Notes under the pieces: model-generated
Told to the model about the DNA's origin: nothing
The model's input: the letters and a program-made list of their open reading frames with translations, nothing else
Databases searched by the model: none
Virus record (IMG/VR): IMGVR_UViG_3300031414_000021
Location: 7,790-71,789 of that record
Origin: a virus
Taxonomy: Duplodnaviria; Caudoviricetes
DNA: 64,000 nucleotides
Reading direction: 5' to 3' (one strand)
Part shown: positions 2,042 to 38,159 of the stretch, piece after piece
Layout of the letters: every line of letters begins with the position of its first letter
Position numbering within the stretch: position 1 is the first letter of the stretch
Made by a program: the position numbers and the translations under genes

Positions 2042-2482
2042 TTATAGCTTCCTCAGCTTCTTGCGCTTGTCTGGGTTGGCACGTTCAGGACGTTTAATCT
2101 GATTGGCAGACTTGCGTGCCTGAGCAATGCGGCGTTTGAGATCTTCGCGCTGACGCTTGTTGCTGTCGTTGTCCTGATCGGTACCTTCAAGTTTCTTCAA
2201 ACGGTCAAGCTGTTCAACCATTCGATCAATTTGTGCAGCACGTCCCAGCTTTTGCTGGTGGACACGCACAGCATCTTGTTGAACCATGCGGCTACGTTGT
2301 GCTTGTCTCATCTTCTTTCTGGCAGGAGCAGGGTCACGCCCTTTTGCCTGTGCATCGCTTACATCTTTTCTGGCTTCTGTTTCATTGCGCTTAGCATTTT
2401 GGAGATCGTTTTTGCTGTTCTCCAATGCCTTCTTTTGATTCTCAGTCATCTTTGAATCACTGAGACTGATAAGAATTTCCAT
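2042..2482 (-). CDS. basic coiled-coil protein with N-terminal ISLS motif (MEILISLS)
   Basis: ATG 2482 after GGAG; K/R/Q-rich 146 aa. Confidence 0.75.
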   Translation of the reverse strand: MEILISLSDSKMTENQKKALENSKNDLQNAKRNETEARKDVSDAQAKGRDPAPARKKMRQAQRSRMVQQDAVRVHQQKLGRAAQIDRMVEQLDRLKKLEGTDQDNDSNKRQREDLKRRIAQARKSANQIKRPERANPDKRKKLRKL

Positions 2483-7461: not shown

Positions 7462-8430
7462 TCACTCGGCGCGTACTTCTTTCAGGCTGTTCTTGATTGC
7501 CTTGCGCAGTGTCTTGCCAACGTCAACACCAGACACATGTCGGGCAAACGTATAGGCAAACAGGCTTGGGGCATTCTTCATTGCAGCCTTTTCAAGATCA
7601 GGACGCCCTTCGGCAACCTCAATCTCTCCCGGCCACAAATCAGCAACTGACGTTCCGTCCTGCTGTGCCATGAGTTCCAACTCTCTGACTGAGATAGAAC
7701 GTTGTCTGGCGATTGATCGGAAGATCAGATCGACAAACGGCAACAGGTCTTCGGACACCACATTCTTAACATCTTTCGCATCACCAGCGTGGAGGAAGTC
7801 TTCAAGCAAACCTGCCAAGACTTCTTTATCCAAACGATGAACATTGCGCAACTTGTTGAACAGGACGAGCCAGCGAACTTTGCGCTTGGAACTTAACAGG
7901 TGAGTCCAAATGCTTTCGCCAATCCCATACAGCAAGCGGTTATAAACATCTTCTCCGACGTGGGTCGAATCGAGGTATACTGTGAGTTCGTCCTGCCACT
8001 CTTCCTTTTTAAAACGTGAACGGAAGGTGTGAGTCTTGCTGCCGCCCTGCTGAACAAAGTTGATAGCCGTCATGCGGCGAATAGCCTCATGCAGGTTATA
8101 CTTGTCAACGATTTTGGGCAGGCGCTTGAGACCAACACGGGCAGCCTTACGAACTTCATCAGGGCGTCCGTACAGATGCATCTTGGGCAGCGTGCTGATA
8201 TCAGGCAGGCTGTGATACGGTCTGACGGTAACGCCAAATGCGCTGGCACCAGGTTCAGGGTCAGCGCCAAGAACGCAGAGCACGTCTACGCTTGGACTAA
8301 ATTTGATTGTCTCTACTTCGCTCTTGTGCATGGTATTTGCAAGGATGCCAACTGTTTTACCAGTGGCCAGTACCAACACGTTTTTGTTACCAGAGCGAAC
8401 CACGAGATAATCATTCTCGTTATGTTTCAT
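7462..8430 (-). CDS. hypothetical protein
   Basis: 322-aa ORF with phage-like codon use; CTGTAAAT 57 nt upstream. Confidence 0.75.
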   Translation of the reverse strand: MKHNENDYLVVRSGNKNVLVLATGKTVGILANTMHKSEVETIKFSPSVDVLCVLGADPEPGASAFGVTVRPYHSLPDISTLPKMHLYGRPDEVRKAARVGLKRLPKIVDKYNLHEAIRRMTAINFVQQGGSKTHTFRSRFKKEEWQDELTVYLDSTHVGEDVYNRLLYGIGESIWTHLLSSKRKVRWLVLFNKLRNVHRLDKEVLAGLLEDFLHAGDAKDVKNVVSEDLLPFVDLIFRSIARQRSISVRELELMAQQDGTSVADLWPGEIEVAEGRPDLEKAAMKNAPSLFAYTFARHVSGVDVGKTLRKAIKNSLKEVRAE

Positions 8431-13582: not shown

Positions 13583-14683
13583 TTATCGGACAATAAAGCC
13601 CTTGTCGATGTTGTATTGGATTTCTTTGCGTTGAACAGGACGCGTTGTCGCAACCCATTCCCATGCCTGCTGGCGTGAGTTACGCTTTTTAGGAGCCTCC
13701 ATGACCTTGAGAACATAGTTCCTGTCTGGCAGAACGATAATGTCCTCAGGTTCAATCATGCCAACTGATGCCGGCAGGACAACTGTGAGATTACCCACAG
13801 TCAGTTCCTGATCGTAGTTCAGCACGTTGGCTTCCTCGCTGATGTTGCAGCGCACTGCCTGCACACCCTGATCGAAAATCATAACGCAGTGCGTGAACGT
13901 TTCAACATTGCGGACGCGAATGATAATATTCTGTCCACGATGCTGATCAAGCAAGGCCATTGTGAGTTCGGTAGGCTGGTTGTTGATAACAGCCATCGGA
14001 CGATACTCGGCACTGTACAGCTTGTCGTTTTCCCTGATGCTGTATTTCACTGTCTTGAAATACTTGGGCACGGTAACGTCGAAGTCAACATATCCGTCCT
14101 TGCGTACCTGCCTGAACAGCAGTGGTGCAACGCTGGGGTCAAGGCTGTAGCCAACAAACTTGTTGACGTGGTGGTGAGACATTACCACGTACTGGTAACC
14201 CACAGCAGCAAAGCCCGGCTGTACGCCCTGACGATAGCAGATGCCACAGTTAACAACGTTGCCACCATCCCAGCGCGTGTCAAACTCATCGCCGTCTGTC
14301 GCAAGATCAACTGCGTCAATCATGGCACGTCCAGCAGGATTGATATCGTCCAGAGATACGGCACTTGACGAACCGCCGCCAAACATAGTGCGGTTGGCAG
14401 GAGTGATTTCAACGTTGCGCTGGTGGATATCCGATTCACGTCCAACAGACTTCAAACCACCAGCCGTATCGCCTGGCAAGTTGTCAACGCGGTTGCAGCT
14501 ACACACCAGACCAAACTTGGCTTTTTTGTAGATGATGCAGCGGGTAGAATCCACAGCCAGTGCCTGTTCCACCTTGGACTGCACGGCAGGTATGATACTA
14601 TCCATCCTTTTTTGGACACGTTCTCCTTCAAAGGTTTTGTAGCGGGTAAACGGAACATTTTTACCGCGTTTAATCCAGCTCAT
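13583..14683 (-). CDS. hypothetical protein, possibly virion structural (head-tail/neck-like)
   Basis: 366 aa with RBS GAGGAG; CSCN and CGIC motifs; beta-rich C-terminus. Function is inferred only. Confidence 0.6.
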   Translation of the reverse strand: MSWIKRGKNVPFTRYKTFEGERVQKRMDSIIPAVQSKVEQALAVDSTRCIIYKKAKFGLVCSCNRVDNLPGDTAGGLKSVGRESDIHQRNVEITPANRTMFGGGSSSAVSLDDINPAGRAMIDAVDLATDGDEFDTRWDGGNVVNCGICYRQGVQPGFAAVGYQYVVMSHHHVNKFVGYSLDPSVAPLLFRQVRKDGYVDFDVTVPKYFKTVKYSIRENDKLYSAEYRPMAVINNQPTELTMALLDQHRGQNIIIRVRNVETFTHCVMIFDQGVQAVRCNISEEANVLNYDQELTVGNLTVVLPASVGMIEPEDIIVLPDRNYVLKVMEAPKKRNSRQQAWEWVATTRPVQRKEIQYNIDKGFIVR

Positions 14684-14742
14684 ATCGTTCTCCTCTAGTG
14701 TCTAAAATTAGTGATCTTCTCATTTATCAATCTTCCTAGAGA

Positions 14743-14770
14743 TTCTTATAAACTTTATAATATATAAGAA
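14743..14770 (+). promoter_or_regulatory. inverted repeat enclosing a TATAAT -10 box (candidate RHH operator or left-end hairpin)
   Basis: TTCTTATA-N12-TATAAGAA with TATAAT at 14756-14761. Confidence 0.5.
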
Positions 14771-14788
14771 GACATGAGGAGAATCCCA

Positions 14789-14938
14789 ATGAGTAAAAAA
14801 CCAAGAGCATATAGCATTAGCGACGATGTGTTTAATGCAGTGCGCAAACGCGCCTTGGAAGAGAGCACTAAGAAGGGTAAACGTGTGTCGGAATCGGAGA
14901 TTGTCGAGAAGACACTGAGAAAGGCATTTGTACGATGA
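14789..14938 (+). CDS. 49-aa ribbon-helix-helix-like DNA-binding protein
   Basis: Not in the ORF track. MSKKPRAYSISDDVFNAVRKRALEES...VSESEIVEKTLRKAF; RBS GAGGAG; ATGA overlap with tnpB. Confidence 0.75.
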   Translation: MSKKPRAYSISDDVFNAVRKRALEESTKKGKRVSESEIVEKTLRKAFVR

Positions 14939-16092
14939 TCGGTTTCGTAGGACTTAAAGTCCGACTATATCCAACAGAGGTCCAGAGAAGTCTTATTGAA
15001 AAGACCTTTGGCTGTTGTCGAAAAGTTGCTAATGCTATGCTGGCAAAAAGAATTGAAGTGTGGACAGCGGAGCAGAGGACAATCGCACGAAACAAATTTA
15101 TCAATGCTCTGCCTAACTTGAAGAAAAAGTTTCCATGGCTGAGTGAGGTTGATAGTCAAGCATTACAGCAGGCTATCATCGACATGGATAAAGCCTTTGT
15201 CGCTTTCTTTGACAAGAAAAGTCACTTCCCTCAATTTAAATCCAAGCATGGGCCACAAGCGTTCAGATCAACTCAGCAGAATAGAGTTATGGACGATAGC
15301 CACATAAAAATAGGCAAGACTGGTGTTGTGCGTTGTCGAGGTATGAACGGCAGATACTCTGGTGAGAAAATAAGAAATGTTACTGTGAGTAGAGATTCCT
15401 GTGGACATTATTATGCCTCAGTCCTCATAGAGAAAGATAGAGTCGTGTACGATCATTGCCATGAGTTTATAGCCTGTGGCGTTGATGTGGGTATAGCCAA
15501 ACCTTTAACAATAGGGTGGGAAGACAACGACAATAAACCCAAGTACAGACACATAGGTAATCTTTTTACTAACAGGCTTGCTGTTAAAGAACAGAAACGG
15601 CTTAAATACCAGAAACAACTATCTCGAAAGAAAGTCGGCTCGAATGGATTCAAGCGTGCCAAGGTTAAGCTTGCCAAAGCCTTTGCTTCTGAAAGAAATT
15701 TACGGGACGACTGGCGCAAAAAGACCGCGTTATTTCTGTGCCGTAAGTTTACTCAGATCAATTTTGAAAAACTCAACCTAAGGCGTATGCTTTCAACAAA
15801 GACAGTAGAAGCGGAAAGGATGAAGCAGCATAAAACAAAACTCAATCGAGATTTATCCAGATTGGGATTTGCAGACCTGATCGCATTCTGTGAACAAAAA
15901 GCAGTTCAGTTTGGCGTGACCATTCAGTTAGTAGATCCTAGAAATACGTCACGCCAATGTAGTTGCTGTGGGCATACTGAGAAAGCCAATCGTATATCCC
16001 AAAGCCGTTTCAAGTGCGTTTCTTGCGGGTTTGAGGCAAACGCCGATGCGAATGCGAGCTGGAACATTCTTCGTCGTCCTGCTTTTGGATAA
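14935..16092 (+). CDS. tnpB: RNA-guided endonuclease TnpB (IS200/IS605 OrfB)
   Basis: N-terminal KVRLYPTEVQ; RuvC motifs GVDVG, FEKL and NADANA..NI; Zn ribbon CSCCG..CVSCG. Confidence 0.92.
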   Translation: MIGFVGLKVRLYPTEVQRSLIEKTFGCCRKVANAMLAKRIEVWTAEQRTIARNKFINALPNLKKKFPWLSEVDSQALQQAIIDMDKAFVAFFDKKSHFPQFKSKHGPQAFRSTQQNRVMDDSHIKIGKTGVVRCRGMNGRYSGEKIRNVTVSRDSCGHYYASVLIEKDRVVYDHCHEFIACGVDVGIAKPLTIGWEDNDNKPKYRHIGNLFTNRLAVKEQKRLKYQKQLSRKKVGSNGFKRAKVKLAKAFASERNLRDDWRKKTALFLCRKFTQINFEKLNLRRMLSTKTVEAERMKQHKTKLNRDLSRLGFADLIAFCEQKAVQFGVTIQLVDPRNTSRQCSCCGHTEKANRISQSRFKCVSCGFEANADANASWNILRRPAFG

Positions 16093-16186
16093 GACGTTTT
16101 TGCTCTTGTTCGTGTTCAAACTCCAGGTCTGTTTTTTCACGCACCTCTTTTATTTCTGCGTCAGAAAGACTTATTAAAATCTGCAT
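16010..16186 (-). CDS. ISLS-motif charged protein (MQILISLS); 3' end overlaps tnpB convergently
   Basis: ATG 16186 after GAGG; an in-frame upstream ATG at 16321 also has GAGGAG. Confidence 0.6.
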   Translation of the reverse strand: MQILISLSDAEIKEVREKTDLEFEHEQEQKRLIQKQDDEECSSSHSHRRLPQTRKKRT

Positions 16187-16381
16187 AGAATAAACCTCAT
16201 ATCGGATTATGTACCGTCGGGCTGACGGGAATTTACGCGAGTGGAGTGTGATTTTATCGCACAATGATGCTCGAAACAGTATTAAATTATTGTACGCCAT
16301 TAGTGACATAGATTTTCGCATTCACTCCTCAGAATAGTTATTTCTTGTTGCTTATAACTTTTAGCCCATGCGAGGCATATC

Positions 16382-16930
16382 ATGCGCATTCTTACGGGCG
16401 ACCCTGGTAAAGTTAATTTTGCCCTTAGTGTTATTGAGGTCAAAGGTAAACACCTGGATGTGATTGGTACGCGCATGTTTCAGCGTCCAATCCAAAATTT
16501 GCATCTGGACATGCGAGAGCCTACAAAGGAGTTCCTCAAAGAACTGCGCGAAATGAACAAGCTGTATGGACCGTTTGATGCCTTGTGCTTTGAACGTTTC
16601 CAATCGCGTGGTCTTGGTGGTAACACGATTGAGGCTATCAGTCTGATGCTGGGTGTTGTATCAGTGTTTGCCGTGCAACAAAACATACCTCTTGACTTGA
16701 TCACAGCAAGCCAGTGGAAAAACGCATTCAACCGACATATGGTTCTCAAGGACTTTTATGCCGAGTTTAACCTGACGTCCAAAAAGAGTCGCAAAGCAAT
16801 TCATGAGTTTGATGCGACGCTTATCGGCGTGTATACCTTCTGCCGACACAACAACGTTAAACCCTTCGCTGGATTCAATAAAGTGATCTACGCCTTTATT
16901 GAGAAGTTCCTGTCCAGCCCCGTTCTCTAG
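16382..16930 (+). CDS. ruvC: RuvC-like Holliday junction resolvase
   Basis: RILTGDPG, CFERFQ and HEFDA acidic motifs. Confidence 0.75.
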   Translation: MRILTGDPGKVNFALSVIEVKGKHLDVIGTRMFQRPIQNLHLDMREPTKEFLKELREMNKLYGPFDALCFERFQSRGLGGNTIEAISLMLGVVSVFAVQQNIPLDLITASQWKNAFNRHMVLKDFYAEFNLTSKKSRKAIHEFDATLIGVYTFCRHNNVKPFAGFNKVIYAFIEKFLSSPVL

Positions 16931-16936
16931 GAGACC

Positions 16937-17209
16937 GTGATGTTTTCAAACAAAGATCTGGTAGCACTGATCAACGAAGTCGCTGAGCCTGTGTATATCT
17001 CGCAAGGCCAAGTTGCTGCAATGGGACAGCGCTACTTTTCCGAAGAGCCGCACATGTTCCCACAGGACAAGGCAGAGGAACAAGTACGCAACCTGCTGGC
17101 AGAAAACATTGACCAAGATGCTCGTGGCGTTGTGTCTTACCGTGACGTATCGGAACTGGATTCGGATGACGGCAAGTTCGTAAGCGTCATCCTGGGTTTC
17201 CTCCAGTAA
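16937..17209 (+). CDS. hypothetical protein
   Basis: RBS AGGAG. Confidence 0.65.
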   Translation: MMFSNKDLVALINEVAEPVYISQGQVAAMGQRYFSEEPHMFPQDKAEEQVRNLLAENIDQDARGVVSYRDVSELDSDDGKFVSVILGFLQ

Positions 17210-17221
17210 TTGGCCATAAAA

Positions 17222-17258
17222 CTGTAAATAAATTTCAGGTTAAGGTATATCTGTAAAT
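17222..17258 (+). promoter_or_regulatory. two CTGTAAAT motifs (candidate phage-sigma promoter)
   Basis: Motif recurs 30-60 nt upstream of many starts on both strands (see findings). Confidence 0.6.
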
Positions 17259-17271
17259 CAGAGGTTTATTT

Positions 17272-17919
17272 ATGGCGCAGGCTACGAAAAAGAAATTGAA
17301 GAAGCGGCAGGTCAAGCAAGCTGCCGCTATTCCTGTGCGTGTGATTGAGGACACGAGGCCTGTTAATCTGTGTCCCGAATTGGAAAACGATGCGGAACCG
17401 TTTAAGTTCCGAGGCCAGTGTCCAATCACTCGCTGCCAGTATTGCACCACCAGCAGTCCAACAGGATGTATGGCTCTGGACCGCAGAGAGGCTAGTGACC
17501 GCAGCATCAGCCACAAAGAGATCGCCTACTACAAACGTGGTCTGTTTCCTGAACTGCGTGACTACGACCAAAAGCAACTCGACACAAGCATCCGACAGGC
17601 GCAGACGCGAGCCAAAGCCGCAGTCGCCCTGAACTCGTACATTGCCCAGCTTGATGATACGGACTGTGATAAAACGTTCACGTATCAGCAGGGCAAGAAT
17701 CCCTGGATTGATCATGTTCACAACTACATGGCTCAAACGTTTCCTGGGTATCGACCGTGGATGATGGCTTATCTGGATGACGCTACCCGCTTCCGTGCGG
17801 CTGTCAAAAAGATTGCCGATGTTGAGATTCAATTAGGCACAACGCTGCGACTGACACCCAAGAAGTATCTCGGGTTCTGTGCGGCGCTGCGAAAACTTAA
17901 ACAGTCTGGAGAGAAATAA
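17272..17919 (+). CDS. hypothetical protein with Cys cluster
   Basis: CP..CPITRCQYC..GC; RBS GAGG. Confidence 0.7.
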   Translation: MAQATKKKLKKRQVKQAAAIPVRVIEDTRPVNLCPELENDAEPFKFRGQCPITRCQYCTTSSPTGCMALDRREASDRSISHKEIAYYKRGLFPELRDYDQKQLDTSIRQAQTRAKAAVALNSYIAQLDDTDCDKTFTYQQGKNPWIDHVHNYMAQTFPGYRPWMMAYLDDATRFRAAVKKIADVEIQLGTTLRLTPKKYLGFCAALRKLKQSGEK

Positions 17920-29374: not shown

Positions 29375-29689
29375 ATGGAAATCATTATCAGCCTCAGCAA
29401 CACAGAACTCAATCCACAGCCTGACCTCACGCCTCAAGCCCGTGCTGCTAATGACCGTGCAGAGCGTGAGCGTCTTGAGCAGGAGTATGCGGGTGAAGAT
29501 ATGACTGAGAAAGAGATTCAGAAAAAGGAAGAAGATCTCAAGGAACAGGAAGAGCAGCGCAAGAAAGATGACCCAGCAGCCCTGCCTCGTGAAATGCCCA
29601 AAGACATTGGTCTGCCTAAATTTAAAGAAACAGACACCGCCACCAGCATCACCAATCGACACGACAATTTGCCTGAGGCTAAGATCTAA
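29375..29689 (+). CDS. ISLS-motif charged protein (MEIIISLS)
   Basis: AGGAG RBS; E/K-rich. Confidence 0.75.
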   Translation: MEIIISLSNTELNPQPDLTPQARAANDRAERERLEQEYAGEDMTEKEIQKKEEDLKEQEEQRKKDDPAALPREMPKDIGLPKFKETDTATSITNRHDNLPEAKI

Positions 29690-37502: not shown

Positions 37503-38159
37503 ATGGAAATCATGATTTCGTTGTCGTTCAAGCAAATAGAGCCGCCAATCGTTTCATACGATCCACAAAAGGCGCCACACGTTAACGACAACAGCAAGCC
37601 TGGCCAGGTGTTTGACCTGCACACGTTGCAGCAAATGAGCTATCTGGACATGAAGAAGGTCAGAGGTGATGCAGGCGCAAAGTACGCTAAGGTAATTGCG
37701 CAGTGGCTAAATGGACAACGTAACATCGAGGTCAAGTTCCGCGTTTCACGACGCAGCAAGATATCGATCGAGGTTAAGAACACCAAGCAGCTTGCAGCAC
37801 GTTACACAGAGGTCTATCTCCTGAGTCCAGAAAAGACTAAATCGAAAGATTGGGAATTGATAGGCACTGGGCCTCACGGCAATGAGAACGTTGTGCAGCT
37901 TGGTGGTCGTATGCAACCTGATGTGTTGTATGCAACGGCACGCAGTATGCTGGGCGCTCACCTGCCTACAGAAGAATGGCCAGGTGACAGCACCCGAGAG
38001 CAAGTAATCGCCAAGTTTGATAAGCAGCGCAAAGAACATCGCACTGTTCCTGACCGCGCTTACAAGTATGTCAACAACAACGAAACCCAATTGATCACCA
38101 TGATGCAAGATGGCATGAGCATTGATGAGATTGTGGCTTGGGTATTAAACCAATACTGA
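37503..38159 (+). CDS. ISLS-motif protein (MEIMISLS)
   Basis: GGAG RBS before ATG 37503. Confidence 0.75.
   Translation: MEIMISLSFKQIEPPIVSYDPQKAPHVNDNSKPGQVFDLHTLQQMSYLDMKKVRGDAGAKYAKVIAQWLNGQRNIEVKFRVSRRSKISIEVKNTKQLAARYTEVYLLSPEKTKSKDWELIGTGPHGNENVVQLGGRMQPDVLYATARSMLGAHLPTEEWPGDSTREQVIAKFDKQRKEHRTVPDRAYKYVNNNETQLITMMQDGMSIDEIVAWVLNQY

Follow-up and report, generated by a model that had tools for sequence, protein, structure and literature searches.

Introduction

Elements of the IS605 family can encode Arc proteins, some of these elements consisting of arc and tnpB only, and the Arc proteins repress the transposon promoter at palindromic sites (Moon, Zedaveinyte, Wiegand and Sternberg, bioRxiv 10.64898/2026.09.24.754181). 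In the arc and tnpB-only elements, a ribbon-helix-helix (RHH) gene lies beside tnpB, the promoter contains a palindromic site, the omegaRNA is located at the tnpB-distal end, and the architecture needs no TnpA. A comparable cassette is described here in a DNA stretch of 64,000 nucleotides (nt), which corresponds to positions 7,790 - 71,789 of the IMG/VR virus record IMGVR_UViG_3300031414_000021 (Duplodnaviria; Caudoviricetes); the whole stretch is referred to as the window, and coordinates are counted from its first letter. The cassette differs from the described elements in that arc is co-directional with tnpB and apparently translationally coupled to it, in that the replicon is a lytic-type jumbo phage, and in that a probable small convergent gene is placed between tnpB and the omegaRNA module and an 8-bp repeat flanks the whole.

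The best solved relative of the encoded TnpB is the ISDra2 TnpB-omegaRNA complex (PDB 8BF8, 8EX9, 8H1J), with the same D/E/D positions at ~30% identity. In ISDra2, the guide RNA is formed from the right end and ~16 nt of the flank, and TnpB cuts where the target-adjacent motif (TAM), located 5' of the left end, directly joins this flank, i.e. at the empty site; AT-rich TAMs are expected for IS200/IS605 elements (review PMC13565253). The same organization of guide and TAM is predicted for the cassette. Unlike the cassette, ISDra2 has a TnpA and an RNA that overlaps the 3' end of tnpB, and its TnpB carries a C-terminal tail of ~35 residues that is missing in the clade of the window TnpB.

RNA-guided homing by TnpB is established for bacteria, and the same has been suggested to occur between co-infecting phages (PMC13565253); no worked natural example of TnpB homing between co-infecting phages was found in the searched literature. 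The free-standing homing endonucleases Seg and Mob of T-even phages, and the proposed 'transposon non-restorative homing' (PMC13565253), share with the cassette a nuclease gene placed between conserved phage genes, presence/absence polymorphism in close relatives, and the co-travelling of adjacent markers. In contrast to Seg and Mob, recognition in the cassette is proposed to depend on an RNA guide and a TAM instead of a protein, and self-immunity on the splitting of TAM and target by the insertion instead of target polymorphism. Taking the evidence set out below together, we consider the cassette to be, probably, a TnpA-less arc-tnpB-omegaRNA element of the IS605 family that passes from one co-infecting phage to another through RNA-guided homing.

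Inserted block, junctions and alleles

The block and its borders were defined by alignment of the window with phages devoid of tnpB:

14715-16306 (alternative register 14707-16298), plus strand: inserted cassette of 1592 bp, missing in relatives
14707-14714, no strand: left copy of an 8-bp direct repeat, with the left junction located before or after it
16299-16306: right copy of the direct repeat, identical to the left copy

From left to right, the block contains a palindromic candidate promoter, an Arc-like RHH gene, tnpB, an antisense open reading frame (ORF) termed ISLS, an omegaRNA module, a weak hairpin and the right end. The nearest isolate is the Erwinia jumbo phage pEa_SNUABM_5 (Rivsvirus), which matches both flanks at 88.7% identity and has just 104 bp between two divergent genes at the site of the block; given the 8-bp repeat, alignment with this empty site makes the two registers equally possible. 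The phages Alexandra and SNUABM_2 have 98 bp of intergenic sequence at this site and no block. The divergent genes on either side encode a conserved 366-residue protein of unknown function and a Holliday-junction resolvase. None of the three complete genomes (pEa_SNUABM_5, Alexandra, SNUABM_2) contains a tnpB anywhere, and the 71.8-kb record holds a single copy of the cassette.

Empty sites were also found in near-identical phages from the metagenome runs X4, X5 and X7, which originate from three studies (phyllosphere 2019, plant 2024 and aquatic 2025). Their contigs jump from 14714 to 16327, and the 20 letters at the joint correspond to 16307-16326 with six differences. The filled allele is present in the window and in run X2, the empty allele in X4, X5, X7, pEa_SNUABM_5, Alexandra and SNUABM_2, so that one homologous site with exact junctions shows a presence/absence polymorphism of the kind expected for a homing element.

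Neither canonical peel-and-paste insertion by TnpA nor homing predicts a flanking 8-bp direct repeat. Capture of the cassette at a staggered break, or microhomology-mediated insertion, may possibly account for it. The 8-mer was also considered as a recurrent promoter motif of the phage and rejected as such, with five copies in the window against 1.8 expected and a single occurrence of the 9-mer.

The tnpB gene and its product

14935-16092, plus strand: tnpB, 385 amino acids (aa), with intact catalytic triad and zinc ribbon and of the full length typical of its clade

The product matches the Pfam families HTH_OrfB_IS605, OrfB_IS605 and Cas12f1-like_TNB with 47.8, 34.4 and 67.6 bits, all above the cut-off, and phrog_506 with E=3e-82. 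An initial annotation, made from the letters of the window, had described the RuvC acidic motifs and the zinc ribbon as intact, and this is borne out by alignment with 15 relatives, in which D184, E278 and D371 as well as the zinc-ribbon residues C342, C345, C361 and C364 are invariant. The clade in which these residues are invariant spans 39-59% identity. The catalytic D/E/D positions also align with the sequences of the ISDra2 TnpB structures (E=5e-36, residues 7-381). RNA-guided, TAM-dependent DNA cleavage is the predicted activity of this TnpB.

The closest relatives of the protein (51-59% identity) have 386-392 aa, and all of them terminate 6-8 residues past a shared N-I-L-R-R; since the window TnpB ends in the same way, its C-terminus is of native length. 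The two nearest relatives with readable DNA are the IMG/VR locus L095 (41%) and Alcaligenes phage Afa-NA1 (38.6%), and wider scans of genome, metagenome, viral, plasmid and phage contigs yielded no TnpB relative above 41% identity. A Y1 TnpA (PF01797) was found nowhere in the 71.8-kb record, while the control genomes were positive, in agreement with the initial annotation; the record represents only 27% of the genome, so that a TnpA copy elsewhere is possible.

One pair of relatives was judged odd, and the boundary mapping was made without it. Afa-NA1 (L194) and Salmonella phage Sen-NF (L195), phages of unrelated hosts, have exactly the tnpB ORF plus 4 nt in common (1492-2671 in both loci) at 99.9% identity, along with a piece of a primase gene, and the shared stretch ends ahead of the omegaRNA module located next in Afa-NA1, which points to chimeric records or to a transfer of very recent date.

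The omegaRNA module and the right end

Four features are located downstream of, or across, the tnpB stop codon:

16186-16010, minus strand: ISLS ORF, 58 aa, convergent with tnpB, with a Shine-Dalgarno sequence at 16195-16198
16093-16198, plus strand: spacer of ~106 nt between tnpB stop and omegaRNA module, an outlier among relatives
16199-16275, plus strand: omegaRNA 3' module with a hairpin (16214-16228), an outer helix (16238-16243 with 16268-16273) and an inner stem-loop (16246-16262)
16276-16298, plus strand: weak AU-rich terminal hairpin (16276-16293) with a 5-nt tail, obtained by folding; candidate right end

As a search with Rfam 15 over 14000-17500 (E<=1) gave no match, and hence no omegaRNA family at threshold, we built a covariance model of our own. 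Downstream of the tnpB stop in both L095 and Afa-NA1, a hairpin that starts at 8-12 nt is followed by two conserved motifs, first a 10-mer and then an 11-mer, with a variable stem-loop between them. The pattern of the two conserved motifs occurs at least 119 times in IMG/VR, where the exact pattern of the window type has no match. From these occurrences, 89 non-redundant modules were aligned to give the covariance model R1; according to RNAalifold, the conserved motifs pair with each other in this alignment. R1 matches 16199-16275 on the plus strand with 26.6 bits (E=3.2e-6), which is its sole match in the window and in the 71.8-kb record; a second module was not found in the record by this search.

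R1 also matches immediately 3' of tnpB in ~50 loci that were gathered by protein similarity alone. In this independent set the outer helix covaries, with 96.8% of cells paired compared to 79% in shuffles and 32-51% for slid partners, and all five of its pairs show double-sided changes. In the window, two pairs of the outer helix are substituted on both sides (C-G to G-C, U-A to A-U) with the helix kept, and no other member shows either change. Such compensatory swaps argue for continued constraint on the module and not for decay.

The minimum free energy fold of 16199-16298 recovers the hairpin, the outer helix and the inner stem-loop of the module together with the AU-rich hairpin; with a z-score of -0.87, the fold of the right end is unremarkable. 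In multi-copy relatives, elements end 22-31 nt past the module, as a hairpin with a tail of 8-10 nt, and the corresponding distance here is 23 or 31 nt, depending on the register. The same relatives, used for calibration of left end, right end and TAM, provided right-end lengths and no usable left-end pairs. The right junction of the block is separated from the tnpB stop by 206-214 nt, which hold the module and the terminal hairpin; the predicted omegaRNA scaffold is encoded 3' of tnpB and ends at the right end, in an atypical position.

It is this position that sets the cassette apart. The 3' end of the module is at +183 nt from the tnpB stop, compared to -116 to +80 in 43 protein-collected loci, and the conserved 10-mer is at +144 nt, compared to -126 to +50 in pattern-collected loci with a TnpB-like ORF upstream; the module is thereby at least 100 nt farther from the stop than in ~100 compared elements. 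The displacement results from the spacer with the ISLS ORF, which is nested between tnpB and the module and resembles no other part of the window and none of the loci retrieved. In addition, ~70 nt at the tnpB 3' end and the adjoining ~35 nt of the spacer (16020-16130, plus strand) can fold into a long imperfect hairpin with the stop codon at its centre; its energy of -37.3 kcal/mol (z=-2.87) was equalled by 2 of 200 shuffles.

The displaced module raises the possibility of a stranded relic, in which TnpB is still open while its omegaRNA was uncoupled by insertion of the ISLS spacer; such a cassette would no longer cut and would merely hitch-hike, its patchy distribution resulting from ordinary recombination and deletion. 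The outlying spacer among ~100 elements would fit this, as would a record with no TnpA, no pair of left-end and right-end hairpins and one cassette copy only, and the unremarkable fold of the right end. Decay would not be expected to preserve the module helix through two compensatory swaps, though, and TnpB is intact, in a cassette that is near-identical in two phages with a diverged flank. Among relatives that look functional, the module is also found at distances from the stop that differ by ~200 nt, which makes the scaffold look like an autonomous unit. We regard a relic as unlikely.

The L095 locus (IMG/VR contig 3300042268_000114, 2977-4260) is a very tightly embedded phage copy of tnpB without an arc gene, in which the start of tnpB overlaps the stop of the preceding gene and 90 nt remain to the next gene. 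These 90 nt contain a full omegaRNA 3' module, which ends ~20 nt ahead of the next start codon.

The initial annotation had read the region differently, as a tnpB without room for a non-coding right end, fused head-on to a neighbouring phage gene whose antisense strand supplied the stop codon, with the guide scaffold located within the coding sequence, provided in trans or missing, the nuclease then being orphaned. Parts of the underlying description hold. The convergent overlap between ISLS ORF and tnpB is real and amounts to 83 nt, and on the opposite strand the letters at 16067-16078 do spell D-D-E-E codons, as the antisense reading of conserved TnpB codons; the antisense part of the ISLS product had been put at ~18 residues and comprises about 27 codons. 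A tnpB packed between genes with only 90 nt downstream also exists, in L095. The conclusion does not follow from this, as a standard module and a terminal hairpin are located inside the cassette 3' of tnpB, essentially the arrangement that the initial annotation itself had named as refuting it, albeit with the module separated from the tnpB 3' end by the spacer instead of spanning it. The ISLS ORF is no neighbouring gene either, since it is part of the block that is missing from relatives; TnpB was not truncated, its C-terminus being of native length; the search with R1 gave no second module in the record; and even the 90 nt of L095 do hold a module. Loss of the right end by fusion is thus hardly tenable.

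Guide register, TAM and divergence of the flanks

Two guides are predicted, depending on the register of the block:

16299-16314, plus strand: predicted guide in register 1, the right 8-mer copy and the next 8 nt
16307-16322, plus strand: predicted guide in register 2, with the right end at 16306

With the right end at 16298 (register 1), the sequence equals the empty sites of X4, X5 and X7 at 18 of 18 consecutive positions. Because a register 2 guide would differ from the natural empty sites at its positions 11 and 16, and because this register implies a cassette with TAM and target at its own right junction, register 1 appears the likelier of the two. Neither guide has another match in the window. 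Under register 1, an AT-rich pentamer with 14706 as its last position is the predicted TAM. At the right junction of the filled genome, the corresponding position is GC-rich, for which reason the filled genome would be protected.

The flanks are mosaic. Between X2 and the window, the cassette shows 2 differences in ~1530 nt and the adjacent 135 nt on the left show none, followed by ~20 differences (8%) in the next 250 nt. X4, in turn, has the flanks of the window with one difference in ~640 flank nt and lacks the cassette. Among the window, X2, X4, X5 and X7, six differences at 16317 and 16322-16326, all within 10 nt to the right of the insertion and additional to the single flank difference of X4, track the filled or empty state; the X4 allele can therefore not be a simple excision product of the window genome. 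In pEa_SNUABM_5, the base at 16317 is of the empty type, yet the pentamer is of the filled type. The divergence profile of X2 and the linked cluster of differences would fit homing with short co-conversion tracts. The suggestion of the initial annotation that TnpB could act in homing or phage-phage competition is in keeping with the coexisting empty and filled alleles, the guide match in one register and a cassette more conserved than its left flank; that it is 'domesticated', as also suggested, does not emerge from these data.

A domesticated function would consist in TnpB-omegaRNA destroying sibling competitors or repressing a promoter, with ISLS as phage-adapted cargo and selfish homing as a secondary trait. 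The target is located where two conserved genes have their divergent promoters, the left junction still matches the register 1 guide over a seed of 8 nt beside the same upstream motif, and the N-terminal motif of ISLS described below is otherwise present only in genes of this phage lineage, all of which would suit a weapon or regulator. Against this, the catalytic residues are intact, unlike in nuclease-dead TnpB-derived repressors, and the cassette is dispensable in close relatives; killing of competitors and homing are not separated by the sequence data. On balance, we hold a weapon or regulator to be improbable, and prefer the homing element.

The Arc-like gene and its candidate operator

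Upstream of tnpB, and preceded by a palindrome, the cassette encodes a small protein:

14743-14770, plus strand: 8-bp inverted repeat around a perfect -10-like hexamer (14756-14761), found by repeat search; candidate promoter/operator of the arc-tnpB operon
14789-14938, plus strand: Arc-like RHH gene, 49 aa, with a Shine-Dalgarno sequence at 14776-14781 and an ATGA overlap with the tnpB start

Judging from the ATGA overlap, arc and tnpB are translationally coupled. The Arc-like protein has no sequence match in Pfam or PDB, a Foldseek search against PDB gave nothing at E<=0.001, and among 1.8 billion representatives three homologues were found (54-69% identity). In the AlphaFold2 (AF2) monomer, which has a predicted local distance difference test score (pLDDT) of 84.7, an extended N-terminus is followed by helices at residues 12-29 and 35-48. 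The top rows of a VIA-align comparison are mostly RHH proteins, including Arc (1arq), with Z-scores of 3.4-5.4 and root-mean-square deviations of ~1.9 Å; low Z-scores are expected for 49 residues. Directly upstream of its tnpB, Afa-NA1 has an Arc-like ORF as well, at 47% identity.

The palindrome and its -10 hexamer are located just upstream of the ribosome-binding site of the Arc-like ORF. By analogy with the described Arc proteins, 14743-14770 is a candidate binding site of the Arc-like protein. A scan with the sigma-70 consensus did not flag this candidate promoter, and the results of the sigma-70 and terminator scans were not above shuffled background. In Afa-NA1 (L194), a 7-bp inverted repeat at 1290-1330, upstream of the Arc-like ORF, has a half-site that resembles the palindrome of the window; the half-sites may possibly represent a conserved operator.

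The ISLS ORF and a shared N-terminal motif

The ISLS ORF begins in the spacer, which contains its Shine-Dalgarno sequence and its 31 initial codons, and continues antisense to the conserved TnpB C-terminus until a chance stop. Several observations count against a gene: antisense ORFs of this size are common (54 ORFs of at least 40 aa in 6.5 kb), searches of Pfam and of the phrog families yielded no family, and among 5.8 billion proteins the product has just near-identical copies in the same element. In favour of a gene, the ribosome-binding site is good. In addition, the product starts with a motif that recurs in the record: M, E/Q, I, L/I/M, I, S, L, S, followed by a loosely conserved tetrapeptide D/N/F-x-x-M/I/L. 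The ORFs bearing this motif encode otherwise unrelated, charged proteins:

2042-2482, minus strand: motif-bearing ORF
16010-16186, minus strand: motif-bearing ORF (ISLS)
29375-29689, plus strand: motif-bearing ORF
37503-38159, plus strand: motif-bearing ORF

As the motif codons differ synonymously between the four ORFs and the upstream DNA is unrelated, the motif is conserved at the peptide level. A degenerate DNA pattern of the motif has four matches in the record and three in pEa_SNUABM_5, the latter at the annotated starts of gp209, gp247 and gp255, whereas it has none in Alexandra, and a reversed control pattern has none at all. We estimate the probability of a chance match at an ATG in the record at ~1e-3. 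Weighing these points, we lean towards regarding the ISLS ORF as a genuine gene that is nested within the cassette and has adapted to the phage lineage. By analogy with the capsid-targeting sequence of phage T4, the motif could serve as an N-terminal tag for targeting or processing.

In the AF2 model of the ISLS product, an extended N-terminus is followed by one long helix (residues 9-41) and an unstructured tail; this low-confidence tail (pLDDT ~60) is largely the tnpB-antisense part. A second RHH protein was rejected on the basis of this single long helix and of a motif-bearing paralogue with prolines directly after the motif. Likewise not adopted was an Hsp70 fragment, which was indicated by language-model resemblance only (0.94) and had no Pfam or PDB sequence support.

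Discussion

The cassette is of a known element kind with three atypical features, namely its residence in a jumbo phage with presence/absence polymorphism, the nested convergent gene that displaces the module, and the flanking 8-bp repeat. In the mechanism that we favour, a ~1.6-kb TnpA-less IS200/IS605 cassette would have entered a Rivsvirus-like jumbo phage, in the divergent promoter region that separates the gene of unknown function from the gene for the Holliday-junction resolvase. The Arc-like RHH repressor and the intact TnpB would be expressed from an autoregulated promoter, and the RNA, if transcribed and processed as predicted, would contain the omegaRNA scaffold at the right end (~16183/16199 to 16298) with the flanking phage sequence as guide. 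Upon co-infection with a sibling that has no cassette, TnpB-omegaRNA would cut the uninterrupted site, consisting of the AT-rich motif ending at 14706 and the guide match, and recombinational repair off the cassette-bearing genome would copy the cassette together with short flanking tracts.

Several points weigh against this mechanism. The distance between tnpB and the module is without precedent in ~100 elements, so that the RNA may be impaired; no left-end hairpin resembling the right-end hairpin was seen in the window sequence or by repeat search; and the cassette is flanked by an 8-bp direct repeat, contrary to canonical peel-and-paste by TnpA. If register 2 were correct, the cassette would have TAM and target at its own right junction, and the natural empty sites would differ from the guide at positions 11 and 16. 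Ordinary phage recombination could also account for the mosaic flanks, and the X2 and X4 contigs are short and of low depth and possibly derive from one sampling campaign.

A bolder version is tentative at best: the TnpB cassette would be sweeping as a gene drive through natural lytic jumbo phages on plant surfaces, and the nested gene with the N-terminal tag of the lineage would have been acquired in residence. If this were true, TnpB, the Arc repressor, the guide RNA and a cargo gene of the phage would be evolving together as a single homing unit.

The locus offers a natural case of the proposed process, with filled and empty alleles on near-identical backgrounds and a guide that is legible from the sequence, and, with relatives that can be cultured on Erwinia amylovora, a host for direct co-infection work is at hand. 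It also carries a caution for annotation, as the guide RNA of a tnpB element need not be missing when an antisense ORF covers the right end. The cassette also indicates that an omegaRNA scaffold can tolerate, or at the least outlast, its separation from tnpB by a nested gene, which bears on the independence of guide RNA genes and on the evolution towards CRISPR-Cas12.

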